DNA of 64,000 nt, from positions 609,768 through 673,767 of the forward strand of contig JBAZWG010000001.1 in NCBI GenBank assembly GCA_041660505.1, given 5' to 3'. Position 1 is the stretch's first letter. Every line of letters begins with the position of its first letter. The notes below the pieces were generated by a model. It ran no database searches, had not been told where the DNA came from, and worked only from the letters and a program-made list of their open reading frames with translations. Shown piece by piece: positions 3,765 through 61,048 of the stretch. The translations under genes were made by a program, and so were the position numbers. The DNA comes from Minisyncoccota bacterium (GTDB lineage: Bacteria > Patescibacteriota > Minisyncoccia > Phycocordibacterales > JACRKE01).

Positions 3765-3977
3765 ATGCATAAACTGAACCACATTTGGCAAAATAGACTC
3801 GTGACCATCCTCGGCTTCATTGTCCTTGTATTGCCACTTACCGGCTTCCCGCACAGTTGGACAGATAACTTTTATTTTTTACTCGGCTTAGCTATCGTCA
3901 TCATCTCATTCCAGCTCGGCAGATTCTTGGTCTATGGCGAAGAGCATGGCGAAAATAATGTTAAAGGGAAAAAATAA
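3765..3977 (+). CDS. small two-helix membrane protein (hypothetical)
   Basis: 70-aa ORF with two hydrophobic helices; overlaps the next gene start. Confidence 0.3.
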   Translation: MHKLNHIWQNRLVTILGFIVLVLPLTGFPHSWTDNFYFLLGLAIVIISFQLGRFLVYGEEHGENNVKGKK

Positions 3978-5322
3978 GATACTCGCACTCGCCTTAGCTG
4001 GGCTCTTTGCGGGCTTTGTTCTTATTGGGGGAGCTTCTCGCCTGCCTTTTATCAGCAAATATCTGCAAGCGAGCAGTGTTTACGTACGCGATACACCAGA
4101 GCCGATAGCAATAAAAGTTGCTTCTACAACGCAAGATCAAGCCAAGTTTGCCTTTATCGCGCCGGTAGTTGCATTACACGAGCCGCGGCCGGAAAAATTG
4201 AAGGCGATATATATATCAAGCTGGTCGGCCGGCTCGGCGACACAGATGAAGCGTCTCATCGGCCTTATAGATCGCACAGAAATAAATGCCGTCGTAATAG
4301 ATATTAAAGATGCGACAGGCGAGATCGCCTTCCATGTGAACGATCCGGCGCTTAAGGCGATGGGCACGGAATCCAATCGCATCGGCAATATAGATAGTCT
4401 TATCAAAGAGCTTCATGCTAAAAATATTTACGTCATCGGCCGAGTCTCGACCTTCCAAGACCCGCTCTTCGCCAAGATCCATCCAGAACTTGCGGTCATT
4501 CGCAAAAGCGATGGCAAATTTTGGCGCGATAGGAAAGGTTTAAGCTGGCTTGACGCCGGCGCCAAGAAGACTTGGGACTATATTATTGCAATAGCGAAAG
4601 AATCTTACTCAAGAGGCTTTGACGAAATTAATTTCGATTACATCCGCTTCCCCTCGGATGGGAATATGAAAGATATCGCCTACAGATTTTATGACGAGGC
4701 CAAACTTACTAAACCGGCGCAAATGAAATTATTTTATGAATATCTGCACAATGCGATGCAAGATAGCCCCACCCCCAACCCCTCCCCGAAGGAGAGGGGA
4801 GGAATATTTTCAAGCGACCAAGGTCTCTCCTCAAGGAGCGAAGCGGGAAGAGGTGAGTCCTTGGTCTCCACCGCCATCCCGCACTCCGCCGACCTCTTCG
4901 GTATGACCACAACCGCCGACGATGATATGGGTATCGGCCAGATGCTGACTGACGCGCTCCCATACTTCGACTATATTTGCCCGATGATATATCCATCGCA
5001 TTACGGCCCGGGCATCAACGGTTACAAAAAGCCGGCGCAATATCCGTACGAAATGGTGGCGTATGCCCTTGAAGGCGCTCTTGCTAAAGCCTCCTCGACC
5101 GACAAGTGGCAAGGTGAGTCCTTACCTAAAGGGGAAGGTCTCTCCTTGCCACCAAGCTATAAAAAAATCGTCCCATGGCTCCAAGACTTCGACATGGGCG
5201 CCACCTACGACGCAGGTATGGTAAGAGCCCAAATAAAAGCGACAGAAGACGCCGGCCTAACGAGCTGGTTACTGTGGGATCCTGCAAACAGATACACAGA
5301 GGGGGCTTTGCAGAAGGAATAG
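3934..5322 (+). CDS. putative glycoside-hydrolase-like TIM-barrel protein (GHL/DUF187-like), membrane anchored, with in-frame low-complexity insertions
   Basis: N-terminal TM anchor; motif GFDEINFDYIRFPSDG recalled from GHL-type putative glycosidases; contains the in-frame repeat that encodes SPTPNPSPKERGGIF. Confidence 0.5.
   Translation: MAKSMAKIMLKGKNKILALALAGLFAGFVLIGGASRLPFISKYLQASSVYVRDTPEPIAIKVASTTQDQAKFAFIAPVVALHEPRPEKLKAIYISSWSAGSATQMKRLIGLIDRTEINAVVIDIKDATGEIAFHVNDPALKAMGTESNRIGNIDSLIKELHAKNIYVIGRVSTFQDPLFAKIHPELAVIRKSDGKFWRDRKGLSWLDAGAKKTWDYIIAIAKESYSRGFDEINFDYIRFPSDGNMKDIAYRFYDEAKLTKPAQMKLFYEYLHNAMQDSPTPNPSPKERGGIFSSDQGLSSRSEAGRGESLVSTAIPHSADLFGMTTTADDDMGIGQMLTDALPYFDYICPMIYPSHYGPGINGYKKPAQYPYEMVAYALEGALAKASSTDKWQGESLPKGEGLSLPPSYKKIVPWLQDFDMGATYDAGMVRAQIKATEDAGLTSWLLWDPANRYTEGALQKE
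4771..4803. repeat. GC-rich palindromic element copy (CCCCTCCCCGAAGGAGAGGGG family), in-frame inside a CDS
   Basis: Same core as copies at 18383, 21061, 41002 and 41047; here it encodes PNPSPKERGG. Confidence 0.75.
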
Positions 5323-5405: not shown

Positions 5406-6953
5406 TCAGACCGTCGACGGATACTTCTGCTCCACGTCTCGATCGTGGAGTTGTTTGATGATTTCTTCGATCGCCCCATACTGCTCGGGTGAGACCGTCG
5501 AGACGTTCGGGGTTATGATCAGGGGCTCCTCGCACGTTTCGTGGTAGCCCCAATCTGGGTGTACCCCGAACTTCTGCTTCAACGACCGGAAGGCCGCCAC
5601 CGTGAACTTCCCGATTATCCATCGGGCAATGTCCTCGATGTTCTGGTTCTTCCGAAAGCTGAACTGCGGGTACTGCGTCGTGAGCTCTAGGATGAAGTCG
5701 CCCGGCGTCCGTGTTCTCGTCTGCCCGAGCTGGCGAGCGCACGACCAGATCTTCGCAATCTTCAAGTTCTGGTCCCTTTTGCCGACCATTCGGCGAATGA
5801 GGACCAGATAGTAGATCCCGATCTGAACAACCCGATTGTACGTCGGGGTGCTGAACGACACACCCTTGTCTTCCGCCACCTGCTTCACCTCGCGGTGCAG
5901 GATCTTGTTCGTGTGGTAGACGTGCTTCCAGTAACGGAAGGTGTCCACCCCGAACATTGTCCTGGCCCGGCCTGCTGCGTGGATGATGCCGTTACAGCAG
6001 GAGAGGAATCCCTCCGGAGTGAAGAAGAGTGCGTGCTTCGTGAGAAGCGCGTGGTTCTGGTCGATATCCCTACAGTTCATGTAGTGGACGATGTCCCAGA
6101 TCTTGAGCTTTTCCACGCCGTCCGCGTCGACGCCGAGCTCGGCCGCAACCACCCAGATGTTCGTCACCTGGGGGCCGCAGACTATGTCCTTGTCGGTGAG
6201 GGGCAGTTCGGCCCAGAGGATTCGCTCAACGAGCCTGATGGAAATGGCTTTCAGTTCCTCTTCCGACAGCCACTCTGGTGGCGGAATAACCCTGAGCACG
6301 ATCAAGTAGACATAGATCTTCAAAAACAGCCTTGCGACTCCTCCTTTGTATCCAGTCTGCTTGACCTTGAAGCGGGCCGTTTCGTCCGATTCTCCCTTCT
6401 TGCGAGTGGGGAAGCGGATGTCGACCACCGCCGTTTCGATCGCCTCCCTCATCTCCTTGTTGGGGATCTGGGGGATGCTGTCGACGACCAGCTTGGTCGG
6501 TACCTCGCGGTACGTTCCAAACTTGATCTCCTCTTCTGGAACGACAACGACAGAGAGCCCCTTGACCTGCTCGATGACCTTCTTGGCGAAGGCCTCTTCA
6601 GGTTTGTCGGTGCTTTCCTCTTCTTCCTCCGAAGGCATCGCCGGCGTCTTCAGGCCGGAGTCGTGTGCCATTTCCCGAAGAAGGTTGAACGAGCAACTCA
6701 TGATCCTTCGGATCTCTTCCTGGATCTCGGTGGGGAGATTGCAGGCCCGCATATCCCGGAGGACAATGCGGATGAGACAGAGAAAGCGTGCGAACAACCC
6801 GAAGGTGTTCCGCGCCTTCTTCATCCCGTCAACGATGATCTCCTTGTACTCGTCAAACTTGTGGACGAGCTTCCAGCGCGTTTCGTCTGGATAGATGTAT
6901 CGTCGTTCCGAGTCCATTTCTACCTGATTAACCTCTGTTTCCGTGGTTCCCAT
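5406..6953 (-). CDS. hypothetical protein (515 aa), GC-rich
   Basis: Long ORF with codon-biased GC-rich composition and no recognised motif; GGGAAC hexamer repeats at its start codon. Confidence 0.6.
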   Translation of the reverse strand: MGTTETEVNQVEMDSERRYIYPDETRWKLVHKFDEYKEIIVDGMKKARNTFGLFARFLCLIRIVLRDMRACNLPTEIQEEIRRIMSCSFNLLREMAHDSGLKTPAMPSEEEEESTDKPEEAFAKKVIEQVKGLSVVVVPEEEIKFGTYREVPTKLVVDSIPQIPNKEMREAIETAVVDIRFPTRKKGESDETARFKVKQTGYKGGVARLFLKIYVYLIVLRVIPPPEWLSEEELKAISIRLVERILWAELPLTDKDIVCGPQVTNIWVVAAELGVDADGVEKLKIWDIVHYMNCRDIDQNHALLTKHALFFTPEGFLSCCNGIIHAAGRARTMFGVDTFRYWKHVYHTNKILHREVKQVAEDKGVSFSTPTYNRVVQIGIYYLVLIRRMVGKRDQNLKIAKIWSCARQLGQTRTRTPGDFILELTTQYPQFSFRKNQNIEDIARWIIGKFTVAAFRSLKQKFGVHPDWGYHETCEEPLIITPNVSTVSPEQYGAIEEIIKQLHDRDVEQKYPSTV

Positions 6954-8546: not shown

Positions 8547-9404
8547 ATGAGCAATGGAACGTTGGTTGATCCAGTGAGTCCAGAAGAGTACCACCGGGCG
8601 AGGCAGAAGTTGCAAGAATTCTTTACCAAGAAGGGTCTCACCTGGGCGGTCGCTCAGCAGAGGCTCTCAATTCTCTCGGCCTGCGAGAACCATCTCTCCA
8701 TCGCGCTCCACGCATTTGCCGGCCAGACCTGGCCACTCCATCAGACGAACCAGATGGAGTTGGAAAAGATGCTCTTGGAGAACCAGGGGTCGACGGGCTA
8801 TTTCTGCGACACGACCTCGTATCGCGAGGAACCGACCCCCAAGAAGGGCAGGCACAACCTGATCTTCCCTATGGTGGAGTTCGAGCTCCCAGGGAACTTC
8901 GAGGTGCTCCTGGCCTTCCTGCAGGATCTCGTCCAGCACCTCGGATTCGTCAAGGCGCCGGCCCCCGTCGTTGACTACCGCGACTACGCCAAGAAGTGCG
9001 GAGTCGAGGAGCTCGGCGATGAACACGAAACCCAACTCTTCCGCGAGCTCGGTCCGGTCGTGATGCTCGTCGACTTCCCGATGAGCACCTCGCCGTTCTG
9101 GAACATGCGGCTCGACGGCGGTCCCGGCGAAAAGATCGCACGAAAGTGCGACGTCATCGTCTGCGGACAGGAGACGATCGGTAGCGCCGAGCGCTCTTGC
9201 GATCCCGAGCAGATGCGGAAGTCCTTCCGTGCAGTCTCTGGTGGAGACTACGCGAGGACGCTCTTCGCACGCTTCTGCAGCGGGCGGGTCCTGGAGGAGT
9301 TGGAAGACTTCCTCTCGCTTCCGTTCTTCCCGCGCTGTGGCGGAGGAATCGGGATGACCCGGCTCATCCGGGCTACACGGATGGTCGGCCTCATTGACAA
9401 GTAG
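8547..9404 (+). CDS. class II aminoacyl-tRNA synthetase catalytic-core paralog (EpmA/AsnA-like, no anticodon-binding domain)
   Basis: Class IIb motif 2 YREEPTPKKGRHNLIFPMVEFEL and motif 3 GGGIGMTRL; about 285 aa, so the catalytic core only; RBS AAGGAGG 8 nt before the ATG at 8547. Confidence 0.65.
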   Translation: MSNGTLVDPVSPEEYHRARQKLQEFFTKKGLTWAVAQQRLSILSACENHLSIALHAFAGQTWPLHQTNQMELEKMLLENQGSTGYFCDTTSYREEPTPKKGRHNLIFPMVEFELPGNFEVLLAFLQDLVQHLGFVKAPAPVVDYRDYAKKCGVEELGDEHETQLFRELGPVVMLVDFPMSTSPFWNMRLDGGPGEKIARKCDVIVCGQETIGSAERSCDPEQMRKSFRAVSGGDYARTLFARFCSGRVLEELEDFLSLPFFPRCGGGIGMTRLIRATRMVGLIDK

Positions 9405-9468: not shown

Positions 9469-9512
9469 TTAGAAGGTTCAACCTTTTTGATGCTTAAGGT
9501 TGAACCTTCTTG
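9469..9512. repeat. AAGGTTCAACCTT / AAGGTTGAACCTT double-palindrome hairpin element (family copy a)
   Basis: Arms AGAAGGTTCAACCTT and AAGGTTGAACCTTCT are perfect reverse complements. Confidence 0.7.
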
Positions 9513-13403: not shown

Positions 13404-13423
13404 CCCACTGGCAGAGGTTCGAC

Positions 13424-13449
13424 CTTAGGCATTCAAAAGGTCGAACCTC
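13424..13449. repeat. hairpin element variant GAGGTTCGACCTT...AAGGTCGAACCTC (family copy b)
   Basis: Perfect 13-bp inverted repeat about 85 nt upstream of rpsN. Confidence 0.6.
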
Positions 13450-13532
13450 AAGAATGCATGCCAATACTTGCGTTAAGCCGTATAATTTGATAGTATTTCA
13501 TTCAAGCTCTTACGTAGAGCTTGAATGCTTTT

Positions 13533-13728: not shown

Positions 13729-13769
13729 AGAAGGTTCAACCTTTAAGATGCCCAAGGTTGAACCTTCTA
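13729..13769. repeat. AAGGTTCAACCTT double-palindrome hairpin element (family copy c)
   Basis: GAAGGTTCAACCTT-TAAGATGCCC-AAGGTTGAACCTTC; ends about 15 nt before the rpsH start. Confidence 0.7.
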
Positions 13770-14769: not shown

Positions 14770-14813
14770 TTAGAAGGTTAAACCTTCTAGATGCCCAAGG
14801 TTTAACCTTCTAA
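14770..14813. repeat. AAGGTTAAACCTT double-palindrome hairpin element (family copy d)
   Basis: TTAGAAGGTTAAACCTTCTAG-ATGCCC-AAGGTTTAACCTTCTAA, perfect 17-bp arms; the 44-mer is identical to copy e. Confidence 0.75.
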
Positions 14814-15888: not shown

Positions 15889-15933
15889 CTTAGAAGGTTA
15901 AACCTTCTAGATGCCCAAGGTTTAACCTTCTAA
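15889..15933. repeat. AAGGTTAAACCTT double-palindrome hairpin element (family copy e, identical to copy d)
   Basis: Identical 44-mer and nearly identical downstream spacer CTAAGACAA(G/A)ACAAAACATG. Confidence 0.75.
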
Positions 15934-17706: not shown

Positions 17707-17719
17707 AGAATCAAGCGAA

Positions 17720-17756
17720 AAGGTTCAACCTTAAGTATCAAAAAGGTTGAACCTTA
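17720..17756. repeat. AAGGTTCAACCTT double-palindrome hairpin element (family copy f)
   Basis: AAGGTTCAACCTT-AAGTATCAAA-AAGGTTGAACCTT between secY and adk. Confidence 0.7.
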
Positions 17757-17781
17757 GAATTCCGCTTGATACAATATTCAC

Positions 17782-18382: not shown

Positions 18383-18418
18383 CAACCCCTCCCTCGCCCT
18401 CCCCGAAGGAGAGGGAAA
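18383..18418. repeat. GC-rich palindromic element copy (CCCTCCCTCGCCCTCCCCGAAGGAGAGGG), intergenic adk/map
   Basis: Same core CCCTCCCCGAAGGAGAGGG as the in-frame copies. Confidence 0.75.
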
Positions 18419-18422
18419 ATTC

Positions 18423-19205: not shown

Positions 19206-21512
19206 CTATAATGAACCGCCGCCGGAATCTGACGTTGGGTCGAAGTATTCGTATTCGGCTGTGGCGGTGCTGGTGCCGACTGCATTGGCCATATAGCCAC
19301 GTACCCAATACTCCACATCTACCGGATGTGTGAAGTCTATATACTGCCAGTCATCGGCGGGGTCTCCCCATATTGGCTCGGTTGCAAGCGGGAGAAAGGT
19401 TGGTCCATTAGGCCCCTCTGTGCTGTATCTAAGTTCCGCATAAGTGAGAGGATTACTACCGATTTCTGGCGACGCGAAGAGTCTATCGCCACGATGCATA
19501 ATCCCGGCATCGTCTTCGTAAGAGAAATAATAAATATCTGTAGGGGCGTTAGGGACTACACCGGGTATCATTGCGATCACATTGGACGCGGTACTCGTCC
19601 CGGCGTTGTTTATTGCGAAAACTTTGAACGAATATTGCGTGCCGTTCGCGAGTTCGGTTATGAGATAACCTGTTGTGGTGCCTGTGCCGTCAACAAGAAT
19701 GTCATCATTGCTCGTGAACCCATCTGTGCTCTTGTGAATTTCGTAATCCGTTAATTCTCCGCCGTCATCCGCTGGTGCTGACCAAGCGAGCGAAGCGCTT
19801 GCGTTGCCCCGTGTGGCGGTTAAACTTTGCGGCGCGCTTGGTGCGACTATCGGGCTTACCGGTGTTGCTGTCACAATGTCTGACGCCGAGCTCGTGCCCG
19901 CGCGATTGATAGCAAAAATTTTGAAATAATAAGCCGTACTATTTGTGAGCCCGGCGACGAGCGTACTTGTGGCGATACTGACACCGTCATCAAGTGTTGT
20001 ATCCGTTTCAGAAAAATTATCGGTGCTCTCGTGAATTTCGTAATCGGTAATCGGAGCATCGGTAACTTCAGTCGGAGAGAGCCATGAGAGTAATACAGTC
20101 GCATCACCGGCAACAGCGAGCGGCGAGAGCGGCGCGCTAGACGTTGCATATGTCGGATCCGGTTCGGGTTCGGGCTCTGATGGCGGAGGTTTAACCTCCG
20201 CAATAGGGACGCCGGTACCGCCACCGCCGAAACCGGGCGAGAGAATTTGAAATACGCTCGTTATCGAGGCTGTCGGTTTTGGCAATTCTGCTTTCGGCGC
20301 CTCTGTCTTCACGGCAGGAGGTGCCGGTTCCACCGGCTTTTTCGGCATCGCACGTAACTCTGCGTGCTGTTCGCGCAGACCGATCGCGCGGTCTTGCAGA
20401 CTTTGTATCTGGCGCACGAGAGCGTCGGTTTCTGCTTGAGTCAGTGTGCGCGGCGGTTGCGGGGCGGGTGCTACTTGGACGATAGCTTTCGGCGTCAGAC
20501 CCGTCACGAACATCGTTTCTTTATGCGGTATAGGAATAATGATAGGCGTCGGTTTGCCGAGTATCGCGATAGTGAAGGCGGAAGCAACTGTGTAGAGCGC
20601 CCCGCCAACCCCCTTTGCTATTGCCGATGTTGTGGTTATTACTGCATTCGCGCTGTCACCGACGGTCTTCATGCCTAAGTTGGCCAGAGGGTCCGCGACA
20701 ACGAAAACGAGGCTCTGGACTTTATGCACGAGCGAGAGTTCCGGTGGGTCGATGCACTTTTTGTCTGGTGCTTGCACATCGTTCGGCTTTAATTTATCCA
20801 AGGACTTCTGAATGGCCGAGACGATTTCTGCTCCGCGATATTTGAGATAGACAGTGGCGAAGCCGTGGCCGGTCTCGTCCCTCTCAAACTCGAGATCGAT
20901 GTGCGTGTTGGGCGCCATTATAGTACGTGAAAGGGTAGAATTGACGATGCCTGCGATGACTTTATCGGTGTCGGAGGTGAGCCATTGCCCTCCGCCGGCT
21001 ACGCGGGATGACGGCGTGGCAACACTGTACACGCCAATGGACTGTGGCGGAACATCCGGCCCCTCCCCAGCCCTCCCCGAAGGAGAGGGAGATGATGCCG
21101 TAACTTTGTCATAAAAGCTGTTGGCATAAAAATTGCCCTGTGAATGGGCAACGAGGAGGAGCTTTTGCGTTGTTACTTTCTGACTCGCGGAGTTCAGTAT
21201 CTCCGTCAAGTCATAATCGCTCACGACCTCGTCGTCAAAGTACTTCTGATTTGCGGCATCCAAAATATCCTTAACCCCGGCAAGGTTGGTGTCGTTGAGG
21301 AGATATTGATAATCCAGACGTTCGTTTTTATAAGAAAGACCTAGAGTATCCCTAAGTGCTTTCATGTTTACTCTAGCTCCAGCGTCGTCTGTAAAAACAC
21401 CGTTGACGGTTGCTACAGTGTATCCATCTTTCGTGCATTGGGTAACTACCGAGGCAAGAACAAAATTTGGTAGTAAACAGATACCTAAGATTAAGCCTGT
21501 TTTAACATTCAT
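19206..21512 (-). CDS. secreted alpha/beta-hydrolase (lipase/esterase-like) with two C-terminal fibronectin type III domains
   Basis: Signal peptide MNVKTGLILGICLL; nucleophile elbow LLLVAHSQGNF (GxSxG type); two Fn3-like repeats (LxWSAPADDGGELTDYEIH...YSFKVFAIN); start set at the internal Met with the signal peptide. Confidence 0.6.
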   Translation of the reverse strand: MNVKTGLILGICLLPNFVLASVVTQCTKDGYTVATVNGVFTDDAGARVNMKALRDTLGLSYKNERLDYQYLLNDTNLAGVKDILDAANQKYFDDEVVSDYDLTEILNSASQKVTTQKLLLVAHSQGNFYANSFYDKVTASSPSPSGRAGEGPDVPPQSIGVYSVATPSSRVAGGGQWLTSDTDKVIAGIVNSTLSRTIMAPNTHIDLEFERDETGHGFATVYLKYRGAEIVSAIQKSLDKLKPNDVQAPDKKCIDPPELSLVHKVQSLVFVVADPLANLGMKTVGDSANAVITTTSAIAKGVGGALYTVASAFTIAILGKPTPIIIPIPHKETMFVTGLTPKAIVQVAPAPQPPRTLTQAETDALVRQIQSLQDRAIGLREQHAELRAMPKKPVEPAPPAVKTEAPKAELPKPTASITSVFQILSPGFGGGGTGVPIAEVKPPPSEPEPEPDPTYATSSAPLSPLAVAGDATVLLSWLSPTEVTDAPITDYEIHESTDNFSETDTTLDDGVSIATSTLVAGLTNSTAYYFKIFAINRAGTSSASDIVTATPVSPIVAPSAPQSLTATRGNASASLAWSAPADDGGELTDYEIHKSTDGFTSNDDILVDGTGTTTGYLITELANGTQYSFKVFAINNAGTSTASNVIAMIPGVVPNAPTDIYYFSYEDDAGIMHRGDRLFASPEIGSNPLTYAELRYSTEGPNGPTFLPLATEPIWGDPADDWQYIDFTHPVDVEYWVRGYMANAVGTSTATAEYEYFDPTSDSGGGSL
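21061..21092. repeat. GC-rich palindromic element copy, in-frame in the minus-strand hydrolase gene
   Basis: CCCTCCCCAGCCCTCCCCGAAGGAGAGGGA; its reverse-complement reading frame gives SPSPSGRAGEGP in the protein. Confidence 0.75.
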
Positions 21513-37284: not shown

Positions 37285-38919
37285 ATGACACAGTCACAGG
37301 CGTTGGATATTTTAAAGACCGGAGCGAACGTGTTCCTCACAGGCGAGCCGGGCGCGGGCAAGACTCATACTATCAACGAGTACATCTGGTATCTGCGCAG
37401 TCGCGGGATAGAGACGGCCGTAACGGCTTCGACCGGCATTGCCGCGACGCATCTATCCGGCATGACGATACACTCATGGAGCGGTATAGGCATCAAGCCG
37501 AAACTTTCGCAGTATGATTTGGACAAACTCACAACCAATGAGTATTTGGTAAAGAGAATTGCGCGGGCGAAGGTCTTGATTATCGATGAAGTGTCGATGC
37601 TCGGGCCGGACACAGTGACGATGGTGGATCAAGTCTGTCGCGAGATACGGATGTCGGGTGAGCCCTTCGGCGGGTTGCAAGTGATATTTGTGGGTGATTT
37701 CTTCCAATTACCGCCAGTCGTTAAAGAAATGCCCAAAGCAAAAGCAGACGAATTTTCACAAGAAATACTTTTTGACGAGATGTCCGAGGTCTCGCCTCGG
37801 ACAGATAGATTTGCTTACTCTTCTCCCGCATGGCAATCAGCTAACGTGATTACTTGCTATTTAACAGAGCAACATCGGCAGGATGATAACGATTTTCTAG
37901 AGCTACTTTCGGCGATACGGCATAACGAATTTACCGAAGATCATTTATTACATCTCGTAAAGCGCAAAGTTGATAGAGAGAAGATTCCGGCCGGGATCCC
38001 CAAATTATATTCGCACAATGTGAATGTCGACGCCGTGAACGACGGCACGCTTAAGAAAATAGAGGGCGATGAGAAGGTGTACGTGATGCAGACAGAGGGT
38101 AAAGAATGGCTTGTGGAGGCGCTTAAACGCGGTTGCCTATCGCCGGAGAAACTCGTGCTCAAGATCGGTGCTGAAGTGATGTTCACAAAAAATAAACCTA
38201 AAGATGGTTTCGTGAACGGCACACAGGGCGTGGTCGAGAAATTTTCCGAATTTACGAACAATCCGATTGTAAAAACGAAATCAGGCCAGCGTATCGAAGT
38301 TGAGCCGATGATGGGCTGGTCTATCGAGGAGAACGGCAAGGTCAAGGCGAGCTTGACCCAGTTACCTTTACGTCTGGCTTGGGCTATCACGGTGCACAAG
38401 AGCCAAGGTATGAGTATGGACGCGGCGGTCATGGACTTGGGCCAAGTCTTCGAATACGGCCAAGGGTACGTGGCGCTCTCTAGGGTGCGCCGGCTCGCCG
38501 GCGTGCACCTCCTCGGCTGGAACGAGCGCGCCTTCCAAGTTCACCCCGAAGTGCTGGCGCAAGACGAAGTTTTCCGCGCGTCGTCGGACGAAGCGGAAGA
38601 AGCCTTCACTAAACTAACGGCCGAAGAGCTCAAGAAGATGCACGATAACTTTATCATCTCATGCGGCGGAAAGGTGAATCGAAAGTTGAAAGTAGAAAGT
38701 AGAAAGTTGAAAGGGAATACCAAAACGAATACAGGCAAACTGGCAGAAATTAGAGAGAAGCATACCAATGCTTATAGACCGTGGGACAAGGCGCAAGAGA
38801 AGATGCTCAAAGAACTTTTCGAAAGTGAAGTGAAGATAAGCGCGATAGCAAAGCAACTTGGCCGCAAGCCGGGCGCCATCAGAATGCGGCTGGAGAGGTT
38901 GGGGCTGATTTCGAAATAA
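37285..38919 (+). CDS. Pif1/RecD-family SF1 helicase with C-terminal HTH-like tail
   Basis: Walker A GEPGAGKTH; LIIDEVSML; motif VI WAITVHKSQGMSMD; C-terminal basic helix-turn-helix-like segment. Confidence 0.75.
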   Translation: MTQSQALDILKTGANVFLTGEPGAGKTHTINEYIWYLRSRGIETAVTASTGIAATHLSGMTIHSWSGIGIKPKLSQYDLDKLTTNEYLVKRIARAKVLIIDEVSMLGPDTVTMVDQVCREIRMSGEPFGGLQVIFVGDFFQLPPVVKEMPKAKADEFSQEILFDEMSEVSPRTDRFAYSSPAWQSANVITCYLTEQHRQDDNDFLELLSAIRHNEFTEDHLLHLVKRKVDREKIPAGIPKLYSHNVNVDAVNDGTLKKIEGDEKVYVMQTEGKEWLVEALKRGCLSPEKLVLKIGAEVMFTKNKPKDGFVNGTQGVVEKFSEFTNNPIVKTKSGQRIEVEPMMGWSIEENGKVKASLTQLPLRLAWAITVHKSQGMSMDAAVMDLGQVFEYGQGYVALSRVRRLAGVHLLGWNERAFQVHPEVLAQDEVFRASSDEAEEAFTKLTAEELKKMHDNFIISCGGKVNRKLKVESRKLKGNTKTNTGKLAEIREKHTNAYRPWDKAQEKMLKELFESEVKISAIAKQLGRKPGAIRMRLERLGLISK

Positions 38920-39865: not shown

Positions 39866-40783
39866 ATGAAAAATTGGATAATTGGCATTCTTGTTCTTGT
39901 TGTTGTCGGGGGTATCGGATATTTCTTAATGACCAACGGGTCAAAGAGTTCTGAACCTGTAAATCAGGAGCAGGCAACGAGCACAACCGGTGCGCAGACA
40001 GCGACAACTACAACAACAACGGCGGCACAAGAAAATTCAGGGCAGACTGTCATCGGTAAGTCGGTCGAAGGGCGCGATATCATTGCGTATCACTTCGGCA
40101 CGGGCCCTGAAGAAATTCTTTTGATCGGTGGCATCCACGGCGGGTATGAATGGAATACTACCTACCTTGCAAATACACTCGTTGATTACTTTCCGAAAAA
40201 CTCGAAGTTGATTCCTGGTAATCTAAATATCACAATTATCCCGACAATGAACATAGATGGCTTCGCTAAGATTGCTGATGGTCAATACCTTGGCGACGCC
40301 CCGATTTTCACTGCGGCCTCCTCCGCGCAGCTTACTGAGGCTCGCTTTAACGCCAATACCGTCGACTTGAACCGCAACTTCGATTGTAACTGGCAAGCAT
40401 CCGGCGTTTGGCAGAATAAGAAAGTTAGCGGTGGCAGTGCGCCGTTCTCCGAACCGGAAAGTCAGGCTATTAAGAATTATATCGAAGCAAATCACCCGAA
40501 AGCAGTTGTCGTCTATTACAGCGCGGCAGGTGGGGTGTACTCGTCGAGTTGTGGTAACGGTATTTTACCCGAAACCAAGGCTCTCACCTCACTTTACGCT
40601 AAAGCATCCGGCTATAAAGCCTACGACAAGTTCGATGCCTACCAAACATCTGGCGACATGGTCGACTGGCTGGCGAAAATAAATATTCCGGCAATCAGTG
40701 TTTTGCTCACTAATCACACTGATATTGAACTTGATAAAAATCTCGCGGGAGTGAAAGCTGTTTTCGCAAAATACGCGAAATAA
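39866..40783 (+). CDS. M14-family zinc carboxypeptidase-like protein (paralog A)
   Basis: GGIHGGYEW (HxxE-like) and VDLNRNF motifs; TM anchor plus Thr-rich linker. Confidence 0.62.
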   Translation: MKNWIIGILVLVVVGGIGYFLMTNGSKSSEPVNQEQATSTTGAQTATTTTTTAAQENSGQTVIGKSVEGRDIIAYHFGTGPEEILLIGGIHGGYEWNTTYLANTLVDYFPKNSKLIPGNLNITIIPTMNIDGFAKIADGQYLGDAPIFTAASSAQLTEARFNANTVDLNRNFDCNWQASGVWQNKKVSGGSAPFSEPESQAIKNYIEANHPKAVVVYYSAAGGVYSSSCGNGILPETKALTSLYAKASGYKAYDKFDAYQTSGDMVDWLAKINIPAISVLLTNHTDIELDKNLAGVKAVFAKYAK

Positions 40784-40786
40784 GTA

Positions 40787-41746
40787 ATGACGAAGATTTT
40801 CCCACGGTGGGTCGTTATCACGATTATTGCAGTAGTGGCGCTTGGCCTAGGCTTCTCTGTTGTCGCATTATTACAAAAACAACCAACGCCGGCGCCGAAC
40901 CCTGTCGCGCAAAAAGTTGAAAAGGCAAATCCCGAACGCAAAGTCATTGGCAAGTCTGTCGAAGGTCGTGATATCGAGGCGTTTACTTACCGTTCAAACC
41001 TCACCCCTGACCCCTCTCCGAAGGAGAGGGGAGGAATCAGTATTTCCCCCTCCCTTTCGGGGAGGGGGCCGGGGGGTGAGGTGCTTCTCTTCGTCGGCGG
41101 TATCCACGGCGGGTACGAATGGAATAGCGTCGTGCTCGCTTATGACTTGATGGACTACCTCGTCGCAAATCCAGACGCAATTCCCGCGAACGTGCATGTT
41201 ACTGTGATTCCGAACGCCAACCCCGATGGCGTCTTCAAGGTCATCGGCAAAGAAGGGCGCTTCACAATTGCCGATGTGCCGGCTACTGGTGATCAAAGTA
41301 TCGGCCGTTTGAACGCTGACGGCGTAGACTTGAACAGGAACTTCAATTGTAAGTGGAGCCCGAAGGGAGTGTGGAAGGGTAAGTCTGTCGGCACCGGCAC
41401 CGGTCCTTTCTCGGAGCCGGAGGCGATGGCGCTCCGCAATTATATTTTAGAGAACAAGCCCAACGTCGCAGTTTTCTATCACAGTCAGGCCAACGCTGTT
41501 TACGCATCGCAGTGTGAGAAAGGCATCTTGCCAGAGACAACGAACATCATGAACACCTACGCCAAAGCGTCGGGTTACAAGGCCGTCCCGACCTTCGACA
41601 GCTACGCGGTCACGGGCGCGTCGGAGGATTGGCTCGCGTCGCAAAACATTCCCGCGATTACCGTAGAATTATCCTCGCATAAAAAAGTCGAATGGGAGAA
41701 AAATCTGCTTGGCATCACGGCAATCATCGATTATTATAGAAGGTAA
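40787..41746 (+). CDS. M14-family zinc carboxypeptidase-like protein (paralog B) carrying in-frame palindromic insertions
   Basis: Same motifs as paralog A. Where paralog A has GTGPEE, paralog B has RSNLTPDPSPKERGGISISPSLSGRGPGGEV, encoded by two palindromic elements. Confidence 0.62.
   Translation: MTKIFPRWVVITIIAVVALGLGFSVVALLQKQPTPAPNPVAQKVEKANPERKVIGKSVEGRDIEAFTYRSNLTPDPSPKERGGISISPSLSGRGPGGEVLLFVGGIHGGYEWNSVVLAYDLMDYLVANPDAIPANVHVTVIPNANPDGVFKVIGKEGRFTIADVPATGDQSIGRLNADGVDLNRNFNCKWSPKGVWKGKSVGTGTGPFSEPEAMALRNYILENKPNVAVFYHSQANAVYASQCEKGILPETTNIMNTYAKASGYKAVPTFDSYAVTGASEDWLASQNIPAITVELSSHKKVEWEKNLLGITAIIDYYRR
41002..41068. repeat. two tandem, oppositely oriented GC-rich palindromic elements (CCCCTCTCCGAAGGAGAGGGG and CCCTCCCTTTCGGGGAGGG), in-frame
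   Basis: Each is a perfect hairpin; the insertion is absent from the adjacent paralog. Confidence 0.8.
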
Positions 41747-56248: not shown

Positions 56249-56270
56249 TTGCATTTGTCCCTTCTCCTTC
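56249..56270. repeat. variant palindromic hairpin CCTTCTCC-TTCG-GAGAAGG downstream of rplT (terminator-like)
   Basis: Perfect 8-bp stem; on the minus strand it is followed by GGGCTTTTTTG. Confidence 0.5.
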
Positions 56271-56296
56271 GGAGAAGGCCAGGATGAGGTGGTATC

Positions 56297-59375: not shown

Positions 59376-59404
59376 TGCCCACCCCGACGAAGTGTCGGGG
59401 TGGG
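59376..59404 (+). terminator. hairpin CCCACCCCGACGAAGTGTCGGGGTGGGCGAGG
   Basis: 11-bp perfect stem; near-identical to the element at 60843. Confidence 0.5.
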
Positions 59405-59699
59405 CGAGGCAAGCGAGTGAGAGCCTGATAGATTAAGAACCTATCTTAATCTCGCTCAAATAACAAAACAGATCACGCAAAATACGTGGTCTTTTTTGTT
59501 TCTAATATACATCATTTCTGTGCTATAGCAGAGCGGTGATGTATGTGTCGGAGGCGAGACCTCGGACAATAAAGAGATTCTGAAACTGGTTTAATCAGGT
59601 CGACATTTGGCCATAAATATGGTAGATGTAAAGGCCGTACTCGCTGTTTTGACATAATAATACTGACTGAAACTATTTAACATAAAACACTACAGAGCT

Positions 59700-60824
59700 T
59701 TGCTCGAAAGGGGACTCATCATGGACTTTACGCTTCAGGAAAAAGATGGTCTGCCGGTTTTGCTCGCAGTCATGAAGATTGTCCGGATGGTTCTCTCGAT
59801 GCTCCCCGGAATTTTCGGGGAGTTCTTCATCGAGCCGGCAGGAGACAAGCGGGTAGAGAAGGACACGCCTGATATGTCCGTCGCCCAGTACGTCCCGGGT
59901 GTCGTCTATATCAAGGTTGTGGTCAGCCGACCCACGACTGGCAAGAGGCTTTACACCAGCCGGCTCTATTTGCCAGCCGGCATGGAAACCTATAATTTCC
60001 TTGCCGTATGCAAGGCGATTATCGACTTCATGTTGAAAGCCAAACCGCCACCACCAGACCTGTGCATTAAGAAGATCGAGGTGGAACCACTGCCTCTGAT
60101 GGCGGAGGTTAAACCTCCGACGGACGCGGAAGATCCAGAAGAGAAAGACCTTCTGGCTGGTCTAGAACATCCGGCCGACAAGGTCGAGATTCCGACTCCT
60201 GTCCCCGCGCCCGCAACCGAGCCAGCTCCGGTCATGATGGCGGAGGTTAAACCTCCGCCAATCGACCTCGGTATCCCGCTCGAGGAGATCGAGGCGCAGT
60301 TCGCGCCGGATATTCCCGAGATTGTCGTGGAGCCGGAGGTTGAGTTGCTGCCGATGTTAGAAGTGGCGGAGGAGCCGGCAGAGCCGAGGGCGCTCACACC
60401 GACGGAACGCCTTGCCCTAGTAGCACGAGGCGAAACGGAGAAGGCACAGGCGGCAACGCCTCCACCGCCAAAGCCGACGAAGGTTGACTTAGGCCTCCGG
60501 CTCAAGAGATGGTTCGGAAGCGAGGATAACTTCGCCTCCGTTTCTCTCATGATGGCGGCGCTCGTGAGGGAGGCGGGGTATTCCGACCACGTGCTGAAGT
60601 ATGGTGTGGAGGATTTCCCCAAGGCTTCCACCCTCGAGCGGCAGGAGATTGAAATCCTTGGCCGCAACGAGTGGAGTGCCGAAGTCGATCTCCACCTTCG
60701 GATTGGTGGGAAATTGGTCAACTTCAAGACGAAGCTCAACTTCGGCAAGCCCCAGCGCGGGGAGCGGATGTTTCGCAATCTGCAAACTGCGGCGCGCCGA
60801 CTCAACAAGTACTTTCGCCGATAG
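59700..60824 (+). CDS. hypothetical GC-rich Pro/Glu-rich protein
   Basis: 374-aa ORF with a central PEPEV low-complexity region; followed by the same hairpin family. Confidence 0.5.
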   Translation: MLERGLIMDFTLQEKDGLPVLLAVMKIVRMVLSMLPGIFGEFFIEPAGDKRVEKDTPDMSVAQYVPGVVYIKVVVSRPTTGKRLYTSRLYLPAGMETYNFLAVCKAIIDFMLKAKPPPPDLCIKKIEVEPLPLMAEVKPPTDAEDPEEKDLLAGLEHPADKVEIPTPVPAPATEPAPVMMAEVKPPPIDLGIPLEEIEAQFAPDIPEIVVEPEVELLPMLEVAEEPAEPRALTPTERLALVARGETEKAQAATPPPPKPTKVDLGLRLKRWFGSEDNFASVSLMMAALVREAGYSDHVLKYGVEDFPKASTLERQEIEILGRNEWSAEVDLHLRIGGKLVNFKTKLNFGKPQRGERMFRNLQTAARRLNKYFRR

Positions 60825-60842: not shown

Positions 60843-60871
60843 GCCCGCCCCGACGCAGTGTCGGGGCGGGC
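60843..60871 (+). terminator. hairpin CCCGCCCCGACGCAGTGTCGGGGCGGGCGAGG (paralogous to 59376)
   Basis: Same stem-loop with two compensatory changes. Confidence 0.5.
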
Positions 60872-61048
60872 GAGGTCAAGAGAACAGTCTGAATGTAGCC
60901 AAGGAGAGACCTCCGCTCGAAACCGGAGGACTCACCTTCGCTTCAAAATAATTCGGGCTGTTTTTTTAGTTTATACTCCAAAGAAACAACATCTCGTTTT
61001 CCAGAAATTCTAAATAAATAAGCGGTCGCTGATTAATTTAGACAAACA

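Follow-up and report, generated by a model that had tools for sequence, protein, structure and literature searches.

Repeats of BoxC/PIT/TM architecture inserted in frame into genes of a Paceibacterota bacterium

What are the short G/C-rich palindromes that interrupt an M14 metallopeptidase gene of a Minisyncoccota (Paceibacterota) bacterium without breaking its reading frame, and how did they come to lie there? We analyzed a stretch of 64,000 nucleotides of this metagenome-assembled genome (MAG), a member of the candidate phyla radiation (CPR) (assembly GCA_041660505.1, contig JBAZWG010000001.1, positions 609,768 to 673,767 of the forward strand; hereafter the window, counted from its first letter). 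By their architecture the palindromes are members of a repeat family that goes under the names BoxC, PIT element and intrastrand triplex motif (TM). These repeats have been known since the 1990s and treated as intergenic, in enterobacteria and cyanobacteria; BoxC is said to have been described by Bachellier et al. in the 1990s, and to our knowledge the origin, spread and function of the family are still unexplained. With a probability of roughly 0.7, we think that BoxC/PIT/TM repeats entered this Paceibacterota lineage from outside, multiplied and survived where they did little harm, so that the protein loops that they encode are by-products. What is new here is the CPR host, the intragenic behavior of this family, the outward-pair anatomy and a possible link to DUF559; the kind of element was already known.

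Six copies of a three-block repeat

The core sequence CCCTCYCCGAAGGRGAGGG is matched with at most three mismatches at six sites in the window (4780, 18397, 21071, 41012, 41048 and 56260), against a mean of 0.04 matches expected from dinucleotide-preserving shuffles. The copies are spread over 52 kb, and one inverted pair is among them. A profile hidden Markov model (HMM) built from 132 copies in other genomes recovers all six and no other, and nhmmer searches with the profile and relaxed regular expressions found no extra or degenerate copies in the window. A finder of our own, which encodes only the architectural rule of the TM family (a C-stem, a G-stem and a mirror G-block), also returns these six copies and nothing else in the 64 kb, with stems of 8–10 nt; a mononucleotide-shuffled window gives about 0.75 weak matches. 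Four of the six units (33–42 nt each) lie in frame within open reading frames (ORFs), in three genes, and the other two in spacers:

4767–4805, minus strand: TM unit 1, in frame in a DUF4015 gene; plus strand CCCCACCCC-CAA-CCCCTCCCC-GAA-GGAGAGGGG-AGGAAT; encodes SPTPNPSPKERGG
18384–18422, minus strand: TM unit 2, filling almost the whole 44-nt adk-map spacer; G-stem GGAGAGGG
21058–21096, minus strand: TM unit 3, single, in a lipase-like gene; mRNA sense CCCTCTCC-TTC-GGGGAGGG-CTG-GGGAGGGG; encodes SPSPSGRAGEG
40999–41037, minus strand: TM unit 4, left half of the pair; plus strand CCTCACCCC-TGA-CCCCTCTCC-GAA-GGAGAGGGG(AGGAAT); encodes LTPDPSPKERGG
41045–41082, plus strand: TM unit 5, right half of the pair; CCCCCTCCC-TTTC-GGGGAGGGGG-CCG-GGGGGTGAGG; encodes SPSLSGRGPGGE
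40999–41082, no strand: composite inverted pair of units 4 and 5, 84 nt, mirror blocks outward, spacer of about 8 nt
56253–56294, plus strand: TM unit 6, a variant; CCTTCTCC-TTC-GGAGAAGG-CCA-GGATGAGG; starts 2 nt after the rplT stop

The preliminary description of this DNA, made from its letters alone, had listed a repeat family at these sites and stated that four copies lie in genes and keep the frame; both statements are confirmed, its coordinates being off by a few bases. Its treatment of the element as a plain hairpin does not stand. The repeat exceeds the hairpin: a C-rich arm, CCTCACCCC or CCCCACCCC, lies 3–5 nt upstream of the core, so that the common sequence reaches about 14 nt further 5′, and this arm is a mirror copy of the stem that covaries with it. 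On the 3′ side the homology extends for only a few nucleotides, with GAGGAAT common to two window copies. On its G-rich strand a unit consists of the C-stem CCCCTCTCC, the loop TTC, the G-stem GGAGAGGGG, a second loop of 3 nt (TCA, CCG, TTG, CGA, CTG or CCA) and a second G-block, GGGGTGAGG, which is the mirror image of the G-stem. In unit 4, read on the plus strand, the order is accordingly C-mirror block, C-stem, G-stem. Among de-duplicated copies from 183 sources (182 foreign loci, that is, loci in other genomes, plus the window), 147 of 148 cases show the same base at the variable position of the stem and at its mirror position (T/T 129, C/C 18, one discordant; P = 3×10−22, Fisher's exact test, counted over copies that are phylogenetically non-independent). 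Window copy 6 carries the matching change in all three blocks (CCTTCTCC / GGAGAAGG / GGATGAGG), which keeps the mirror/triplex register. The covariation gives indirect support to triplex folding of the window element.

A pyrimidine stem, a complementary purine stem and a purine block mirroring it, joined by short loops, make up the TM rule, and the window copies conform to it (as tested, A may be T in the mirror purine block). They are also multi-copy, dispersed and in part paired in inverted orientation, as is usual in the family: 3610 TM occurrences are reported in 262 proteobacterial genomes, with inverted pairs frequent, and the motif corresponds to the earlier BoxC and the later PIT elements (Hoyne & Maher 2000, 2002; PMC4666352). 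The consensus of the E. coli form, TMECO, is CCCTCNCCC-N3-6-GGGNGAGGG-N3-GGGNGAGGG, with loop 2 either TTA (type A) or CCG (type B), and a TM single strand forms a triplex in vitro, which has not been seen in vivo (PMC4666352). The window units align well with the E. coli units of PMC4666352 Table 1. Both have three G/C-rich blocks (C-stem, G-stem, mirror G-block), nearly identical in sequence (GGAGAGGG / GGGGTGAGG), with loop 1 of 3–6 nt and loop 2 of 3 nt; CCG occurs as loop 2 in both, in the window in unit 5, as in type B; and both are dispersed, often in inverted pairs, and lack terminator features. The strict TMECO pattern, however, has no match in the window at up to three substitutions (two copies match at four and three at five). 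The window copies are therefore a sister variant of TMECO, and their assignment to strict TMECO, which would need at least four substitutions, was rejected. The window stems of 8–10 nt lie in a shifted register, and loop 1 is TTC/GAA. Moreover, the mirror blocks point outward in pairs of the window type, whereas they point inward in the E. coli pair 1+2. Location and host differ as well: the intergenic-only placement of the E. coli copies does not extend to the window, where the host is a CPR bacterium and four of the six units lie in ORFs.

The Rfam scan of the window returned nothing past gathering thresholds except one tRNA, and a permissive scan of the M14 insert gave only sub-threshold generic hairpins (miRNA precursors, mraW), so that the element fits no known RNA family.

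Insertions that keep the frame

Three genes of the window host the intragenic units, and an adjacent paralog of one of them lacks the insert:

40787–41746, plus strand: M14b, host gene, M14 metallopeptidase of a conserved VanY-M14a-M14b cluster (Pfam, homologs)
39866–40783, plus strand: M14a, adjacent paralog without insert, loop GTGPEE
3934–5322, plus strand: gene for a DUF4015 putative glycoside hydrolase (Pfam; NCBI start 3958)
4820–4866, no strand: second part of the 35-residue insert in the DUF4015 gene, a mini-hairpin pair, AAGG-TCTCT-CCTC .. AGG-TGAGT-CCTT within the stem GACCAAGG/CCTTGGTC
19206–21512, minus strand: gene for a secreted lipase-like protein (AHSQGN motif) with FN3 repeats (Pfam, motif)

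Across units 4 and 5 the M14b gene encodes LTPDPSPKERGG..SPSLSGRGPGGEV. The comparison of the two paralogs, from which an insertion had first been deduced, holds: at 40% identity, the BLASTP alignment has a gap of 23 residues in M14a. Orthologs are the stronger evidence. The segment is 63 amino acids long in M14b against 38 in most of 119 homologs, a gain of about 25 residues, and it replaces a beta-turn of four residues (YTYGxGxT..; YTYGxGxTHL in most homologs). The loop is also short in 93 of 110 further metagenomic M14 genes, and the syntenic VanY-M14a-M14b ortholog of the nearest relative (65% identity) is without the TM pair. The AlphaFold2 (AF2) model of M14b has the standard carboxypeptidase/MpaA fold and a mean predicted local distance difference test score (pLDDT) of 90. 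In it the insert (about residues 70–97, pLDDT 56–67) lies between the confident strands 62–69 and 98–103, as would be expected for a surface loop. At the nucleic acid level, 40995–41086 (92 nt) folds as one long hairpin in nearest-neighbor hairpin models (RNA −67.5 kcal/mol, z −6.8; DNA −32.6 kcal/mol, z −5.8).

In the DUF4015 gene, the product of which matches the Pfam model with 364 residues for 313 model positions, unit 1 contributes TPNPSPKERGG to a segment of 60 amino acids (homolog median 25), which has thus gained about 35 residues. The rest of this insert, at 4820–4866, is probably a different small palindromic element. Mini-hairpin pairs of the form AAGG-TCTCT-CCTY and RAGG-TGAGT-CCTT with 8-bp outer stems occur at 4820–4866 and again at 5105–5150, accounting for about 16 residues each, and at the first of these sites the ortholog P0122 (L201, 60% identical) reads GGAGG-TGAGT-CCTCC..GGAGG-TCTCT-CCTC. 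The idea that 4820–4866 is a decayed second TM unit was rejected because the same 9-mers recur at 5105–5150 and in P0122. The mini-hairpin pair may be a third small element, older than the adjacent TM insertion. In the lipase-like gene, unit 3 adds about 10 residues after the nucleophile helix of the lipase-like domain (segment of 46 amino acids against a median of 36 among 149 representatives). At the same site the homologs P0363 and P0386 have other inserts, ..PDIGRSDVLENIRTS.. and ..TPSSRGLDTSPLKRGRGG.., which look like translations of further palindromic repeats.

Because orthologs, including syntenic ones, at up to 60–65% identity are without these segments (the best non-self matches are 60–66% identical), the segments are insertions. 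In none of the M14, DUF4015 and lipase-like genes is the segment common to all orthologs, and the proposal of dispersed palindromic insertions in place of ancestral low-complexity sequence is thus borne out by orthologs and synteny. Nor is the element a protein motif, because the intragenic copies read the identical DNA in three different frames within the window and the same DNA is present in spacers.

The two intergenic units had been placed where terminators are expected, which we could not support. Neither unit 2 nor unit 6 passes a terminator scan that asks for a stem and a T tail, as both lack the T tail, and a terminator role was rejected for both; moreover, unit 2 lies within an operon, since the adk-map spacer belongs to the ribosomal-protein/secY operon. 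The G-stem of this unit, GGAGAGGG, stops 7 nt short of the map ATG, and the spacer contains no other Shine-Dalgarno-like sequence.

Distribution in other phyla and the DUF559 nuclease

The exact 19-mer core occurs at no fewer than 120 loci among species-representative genomes of other phyla. Bacteroidota predominate among the matches listed, which also include some Ignavibacteria, Desulfobacteraceae, Moduliflexus and others, and the arm CCTCACCCC is present at nearly all of the foreign core loci listed. The suggestion of a new or CPR-specific family therefore falls, given the three-block BoxC/PIT/TM architecture and a core so widespread in other phyla. The part of the novelty claim that concerns the host survives, in that we found no paper describing such elements in CPR genomes; the core sequence and the peptide PSPKERG were likewise found in no paper. 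In related CPR genomes the picture is the reverse: HMM and relaxed regular expressions found zero copies of the TM sequence family in 870 kb around M14 orthologs on 80 CPR contigs, and the closest relatives, which are syntenic, likewise contributed about 54 kb without a copy. With six copies in the 64-kb window and about 925 kb of sequence from relatives empty, a lineage-specific gain is indicated, which points to invasion. The three-block finder gave only background on the CPR M14 loci apart from three strong matches of other sequence. Units of TM architecture but other sequence lie at 6509–6630 of L190 and 11875–11909 of L130 (for example, CCTCCCTCTT-GGTGT-AAGAGGGAGG-AAA-GGAGGGAGTT); those of L190 are paired in inverted orientation in the intergenic stretch that separates a 133-aa ORF from an Obg-like GTPase gene (genes named by eye).

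The core was also found in 62 viral-contig stretches, some with many copies. Viral contigs L261, L266, L224 and L227 (IMG/VR 3300028586_000777, 3300022936_000189 and others) have up to six TM copies per 1.1 kb, and such contigs are possible vehicles for spread between phyla.

Foreign copies, too, lie deep in genes. About a quarter (33 of 132) are at least 60 codons inside long ORFs, and intragenic copies, taken over the whole family, use every one of the six frames. Pfam matched all of nine foreign host ORFs to protein families, one of them weakly; the hosts include MetH, LeuRS, ValRS, adenylate cyclase, an ICM/MeaB fusion, a DNA methylase, a Mu-type portal and a PolX-like protein. Residence in frame thus characterizes the family as a whole and is not peculiar to CPR bacteria, and an always-intergenic location looks like a property of E. 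coli instead of the TM family. [quoted passage not shown] Outward inverted pairs are the commonest arrangement at the 182 foreign loci (330 units), with 51 cases against 11 inward and 38 direct and with spacers mostly of 4–160 nt, so the window pair has the standard composite form of the family, comparable to a MITE or a REPIN.

Five foreign loci have, alongside a TM unit or pair, a DUF559 domain of about 110 residues that lies in frame within MetH or LeuRS; Pfam scores DUF559 at two of the five (E = 2×10−37 and 2×10−32), and two TM pairs with spacers of 365–390 nt are precisely DUF559-containing cases. DUF559 domains enclosed in this way were noted as follows:

L065 3959–4392, L023 3090–3544, L026, L114, L024, L280 (Bacteroidota and others): in-frame DUF559 between inverted TM units in methionine synthase or leucyl-tRNA synthetase

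The peptides flanking the domain are LTPNPSPKERG ... PLSxGEGxGVR. In E. coli K-12, the DUF559 gene ycjD (NC_000913.3 1351407–1351760, minus strand; L202) has a BoxC/TMECO unit at 1351205–1351239, 168 nt past its stop, which is unit 9 of PMC4666352 Table 1. Of 20 loci chosen only for DUF559, 7 have a TM unit that the strict finder places no more than 200 nt away, where a rough estimate from about one finder match per 100 kb would give a background of about 0.2 loci; most of the other DUF559 loci among the 20 have inverted G/C hairpin repeats. Inverted TM-like or G/C-hairpin repeats bracket DUF559 ORFs both on viral contigs and in the genomes of Flavobacterium, Prevotella and others. On the small viral or prophage contigs L204–L216 (IMG/VR), the DUF559 ORFs have inverted G/C-rich repeats on either side, about 60–70 nt long and consisting of a hairpin and G-tracts, for example CCGCCCCCTATGGGGGCGG..GGTGGGGGCAAGGGGGTGAGC. 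At the protein level, TM peptides occur in only 3 of 120 DUF559 proteins, a test of low sensitivity, since the start that gene callers assign to the ORF lies past the repeat. In databases, 130-residue DUF559 proteins carry names such as "methionine synthase/leucyl-tRNA synthetase," which suggests that DUF559 insertions are frequent. We found no paper that links DUF559 to mobility or describes DUF559 in frame between TM units.

The DUF559 protein, a Vsr-like PD-(D/E)XK endonuclease, is a candidate for the mobilizing enzyme. It is conceivable, although we advance it tentatively, that a cross-phylum mobile element has the TM/BoxC units for its terminal inverted repeats and that its autonomous form carries DUF559 between these ends. 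This form and the short elements derived from it would settle in frame in essential genes (MetH, LeuRS, ValRS, peptidases), the nuclease or the copying step would recognize the triplex-forming mirror architecture, and the Paceibacterota genome would be a recent recipient via phage or uptake of host DNA.

Other palindromes share the window and its relatives. At the M14 loop, GGCGGAGGTTCAACCTCCGCC fills the loop of the syntenic ortholog in L287; CTGCCTGCGCAGGCAG, encoding LPAQAG, occurs in L123, L125 and L188; and L121 (66% identical) has a TM-like unit, loop 2 of which is itself a small hairpin, encoding RVPTLSLGEGRAEGRGGAG. A perfect 21-nt palindrome, GGCGGAGGTT(T/C)AACCTCCGCC, lies in coding sequence at 20175–20200, 60094–60119 and 60232–60260; it encodes AEVKPPP in the lipase/FN3 gene and, twice, MAEVKPP in the ORF 59700–60824, and in another frame (GGGSTSA) it fills the M14b loop of the syntenic ortholog (L287, about 9020–9045). 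It looks like a second intragenic palindromic element of this lineage. The same Pfam-less ORF 59700–60824 is bracketed by two 33-nt G/C hairpins, GCCCRCCCCGACGMAGTGTCGGGGYGGGCGAGG, 91% identical to each other (59377–59409 and 60843–60875). A 40-nt palindrome, AGAAGGTTCAACCTT-N10-AAGGTTGAACCTTCT, unrelated in sequence to the TM units, has six copies (9471–9510, 13412–13451, 13729–13768, 14772–14811, 15892–15931 and 17718–17757), all apparently in short spacers of the ribosomal-protein/secY region. Finally, the gene directly upstream of the VanY-M14a-M14b cluster (37285–38919) encodes a Pif1-like helicase; non-B DNA rich in G is unwound by Pif1 enzymes.

Origin of the copies and what they mean

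Arrival from outside would have been followed by multiplication of a selfish, MITE-like element, in which two inverted units with outward mirror blocks form the palindrome. The spread would have been transposition-like or homing-like, with selection filtering the insertion sites, so that copies persist only in short spacers or at harmless coding sites. Survival in a gene would need a length that is a multiple of three, no stop in frame and a surface-loop site, and the peptides rich in G, P, S, E and R would be by-products without a function of their own.

Several points weigh against this account. Among comparators of at most 66% protein identity we saw no polymorphism between empty and filled sites, and hence no direct evidence of recent movement. 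Flanks inspected at each window copy show no visible target-site duplication; tblastn found no DUF559 in the 64-kb window, and Pfam found no transposase-like family and no REP-associated tyrosine transposase (RAYT) on 19 window ORFs. The window covers 64 kb of a 719-kb genome, so that a genome-wide copy number is an extrapolation. Two or three subfamilies could by themselves produce the covariation counts given above. The DUF559 link is correlative, and DUF559 could be cargo that lands in TM pairs. Furthermore, Holder et al. (2015, PMC4666352) describe the E. coli TMECO copies as "always" intergenic and found them unconnected with known mobile elements.

The best of the alternatives is that the copies are structural signals selected by the host, be it as mRNA stabilizers, pause or termination sites, regulators of translation or recombination hotspots, each copy being functional. 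We consider it unlikely. The very stable hairpin of the M14 pair agrees with it, as does the adk-map copy, since the single Shine-Dalgarno-like sequence of map comes from it and could be masked by it; the register of the three blocks kept by covariation implies some structure-dependent constraint; and TM loci are associated with local genome variability in E. coli (PMC4666352). Host signals, however, would hardly be dispensable to the orthologous genes and spacers of relatives, which are without copies, or sit in unrelated genes in three frames and without a T tail. In E. coli, PIT elements act neither as promoters nor as terminators (Hoyne & Maher 2002, as cited in PMC4666352). Moreover, RNA does not allow a triplex of the purine motif to form (Semerad & Maher 1994, cited in PMC4666352), and with this the conserved mirror block points to a structure needed at the DNA level for propagation.

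It is quite improbable that template switching or slippage created the palindromes where they now lie, at fragile sites that encode loops. Such an origin cannot explain units of 33–39 nt that match a cross-phylum consensus, including the asymmetric C/A position, which is identical in three window copies. The absence of visible target-site duplications would fit it, and so would the repeated use of the same loops, since the M14 loop holds the other palindromes of L287, of L123, L125 and L188 and of L121, and the lipase-domain site also holds other inserts; but repeated loop use is equally expected if selection tolerates insertions only there. An assembly or binning artefact, such as chimeric reads from co-occurring Bacteroidota, where the identical core is abundant and which often share habitats with CPR bacteria, has next to nothing in its favor, because all intragenic copies keep the frame of the CPR gene on both sides, six copies lie on one 719-kb contig and the identical insert-bearing M14 protein is found on an independently assembled Logan contig from another run, so that the M14 insert is not a one-off assembly error. 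Ancestral low-complexity Pro/Gly/Ser-rich linkers kept at the protein level would share the richness in P, S, G, E and R with many linkers, but they are hardly credible where the alignments show the segments absent from nearly all orthologs and where the DNA, present also in spacers and in other frames, is conserved and the peptide is not.

The proposed invasion from outside by a BoxC/PIT/TM element also invites comparison with other repeats that enter genes. Rickettsia palindromic elements (RPEs) were reportedly described by Ogata et al. in 2000. The likeness to them drawn in the preliminary description is sound for behavior, in that palindromes lie in frame in unrelated genes, are tolerated at surface positions and also occur in spacers, and it does not extend to membership in the RPE family. 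RPEs, which are confined to Rickettsia and relatives, form ten families that each encode a conserved peptide, and they measure about 100–150 bp (PMC10969869), whereas the window units of 33–42 nt (84 nt for the pair) are G/C-rich, mirror-structured, shared across phyla and hosted by a Paceibacterota MAG, and their peptide is not conserved, with three frames used in the window and six across the family. With repetitive extragenic palindromes (REPs) and REPINs they share short G/C-rich hairpins, inverted doublets that fold into one hairpin and are likely the mobile unit, and a lineage-specific copy number. In contrast, REPs, which by definition lie outside genes, lack the third, mirror block, no RAYT was found among the 19 window ORFs, and no window copy adjoins a GTAG or CGTC tag (tag defined in PMC3733652). 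In-frame fusions of palindromic or MITE sequences are known for RPE, ERIC, Coxiella QMITE1, Anabaena MITEs and pneumococcal BOX (PMC10969869, PMC3184786). Like bacterial MITEs, which are non-autonomous palindromes with terminal inverted repeats that can sit in ORFs and add peptides, the window pair is small and has terminal inverted repeats. Unlike for MITEs, inspection showed no target-site duplication, no cognate IS transposase is known for it, and its sole candidate partner is the DUF559 nuclease, found together with a TM pair only in other phyla, and not a transposase family.

The TM family has thus reached a reduced CPR genome, where, in the manner of RPEs, it reshapes loops of proteins without breaking the frame. 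This case belongs to a wider and seemingly undescribed pattern, in which about a quarter of the copies sampled in other phyla lie in genes, essential ones among them, and some pairs enclose DUF559. For annotation, TM inserts account for the recurrent peptides PSPKERG, LSFGEGxGVR and PSPSER and for some mis-named small proteins. If the link to DUF559 is true, BoxC, for some 30 years without a known origin, would gain a mobilizing enzyme, and its spread would become testable. In evolution, such inserts supply streamlined proteomes with new surface loops and mark the flow of DNA into CPR bacteria.

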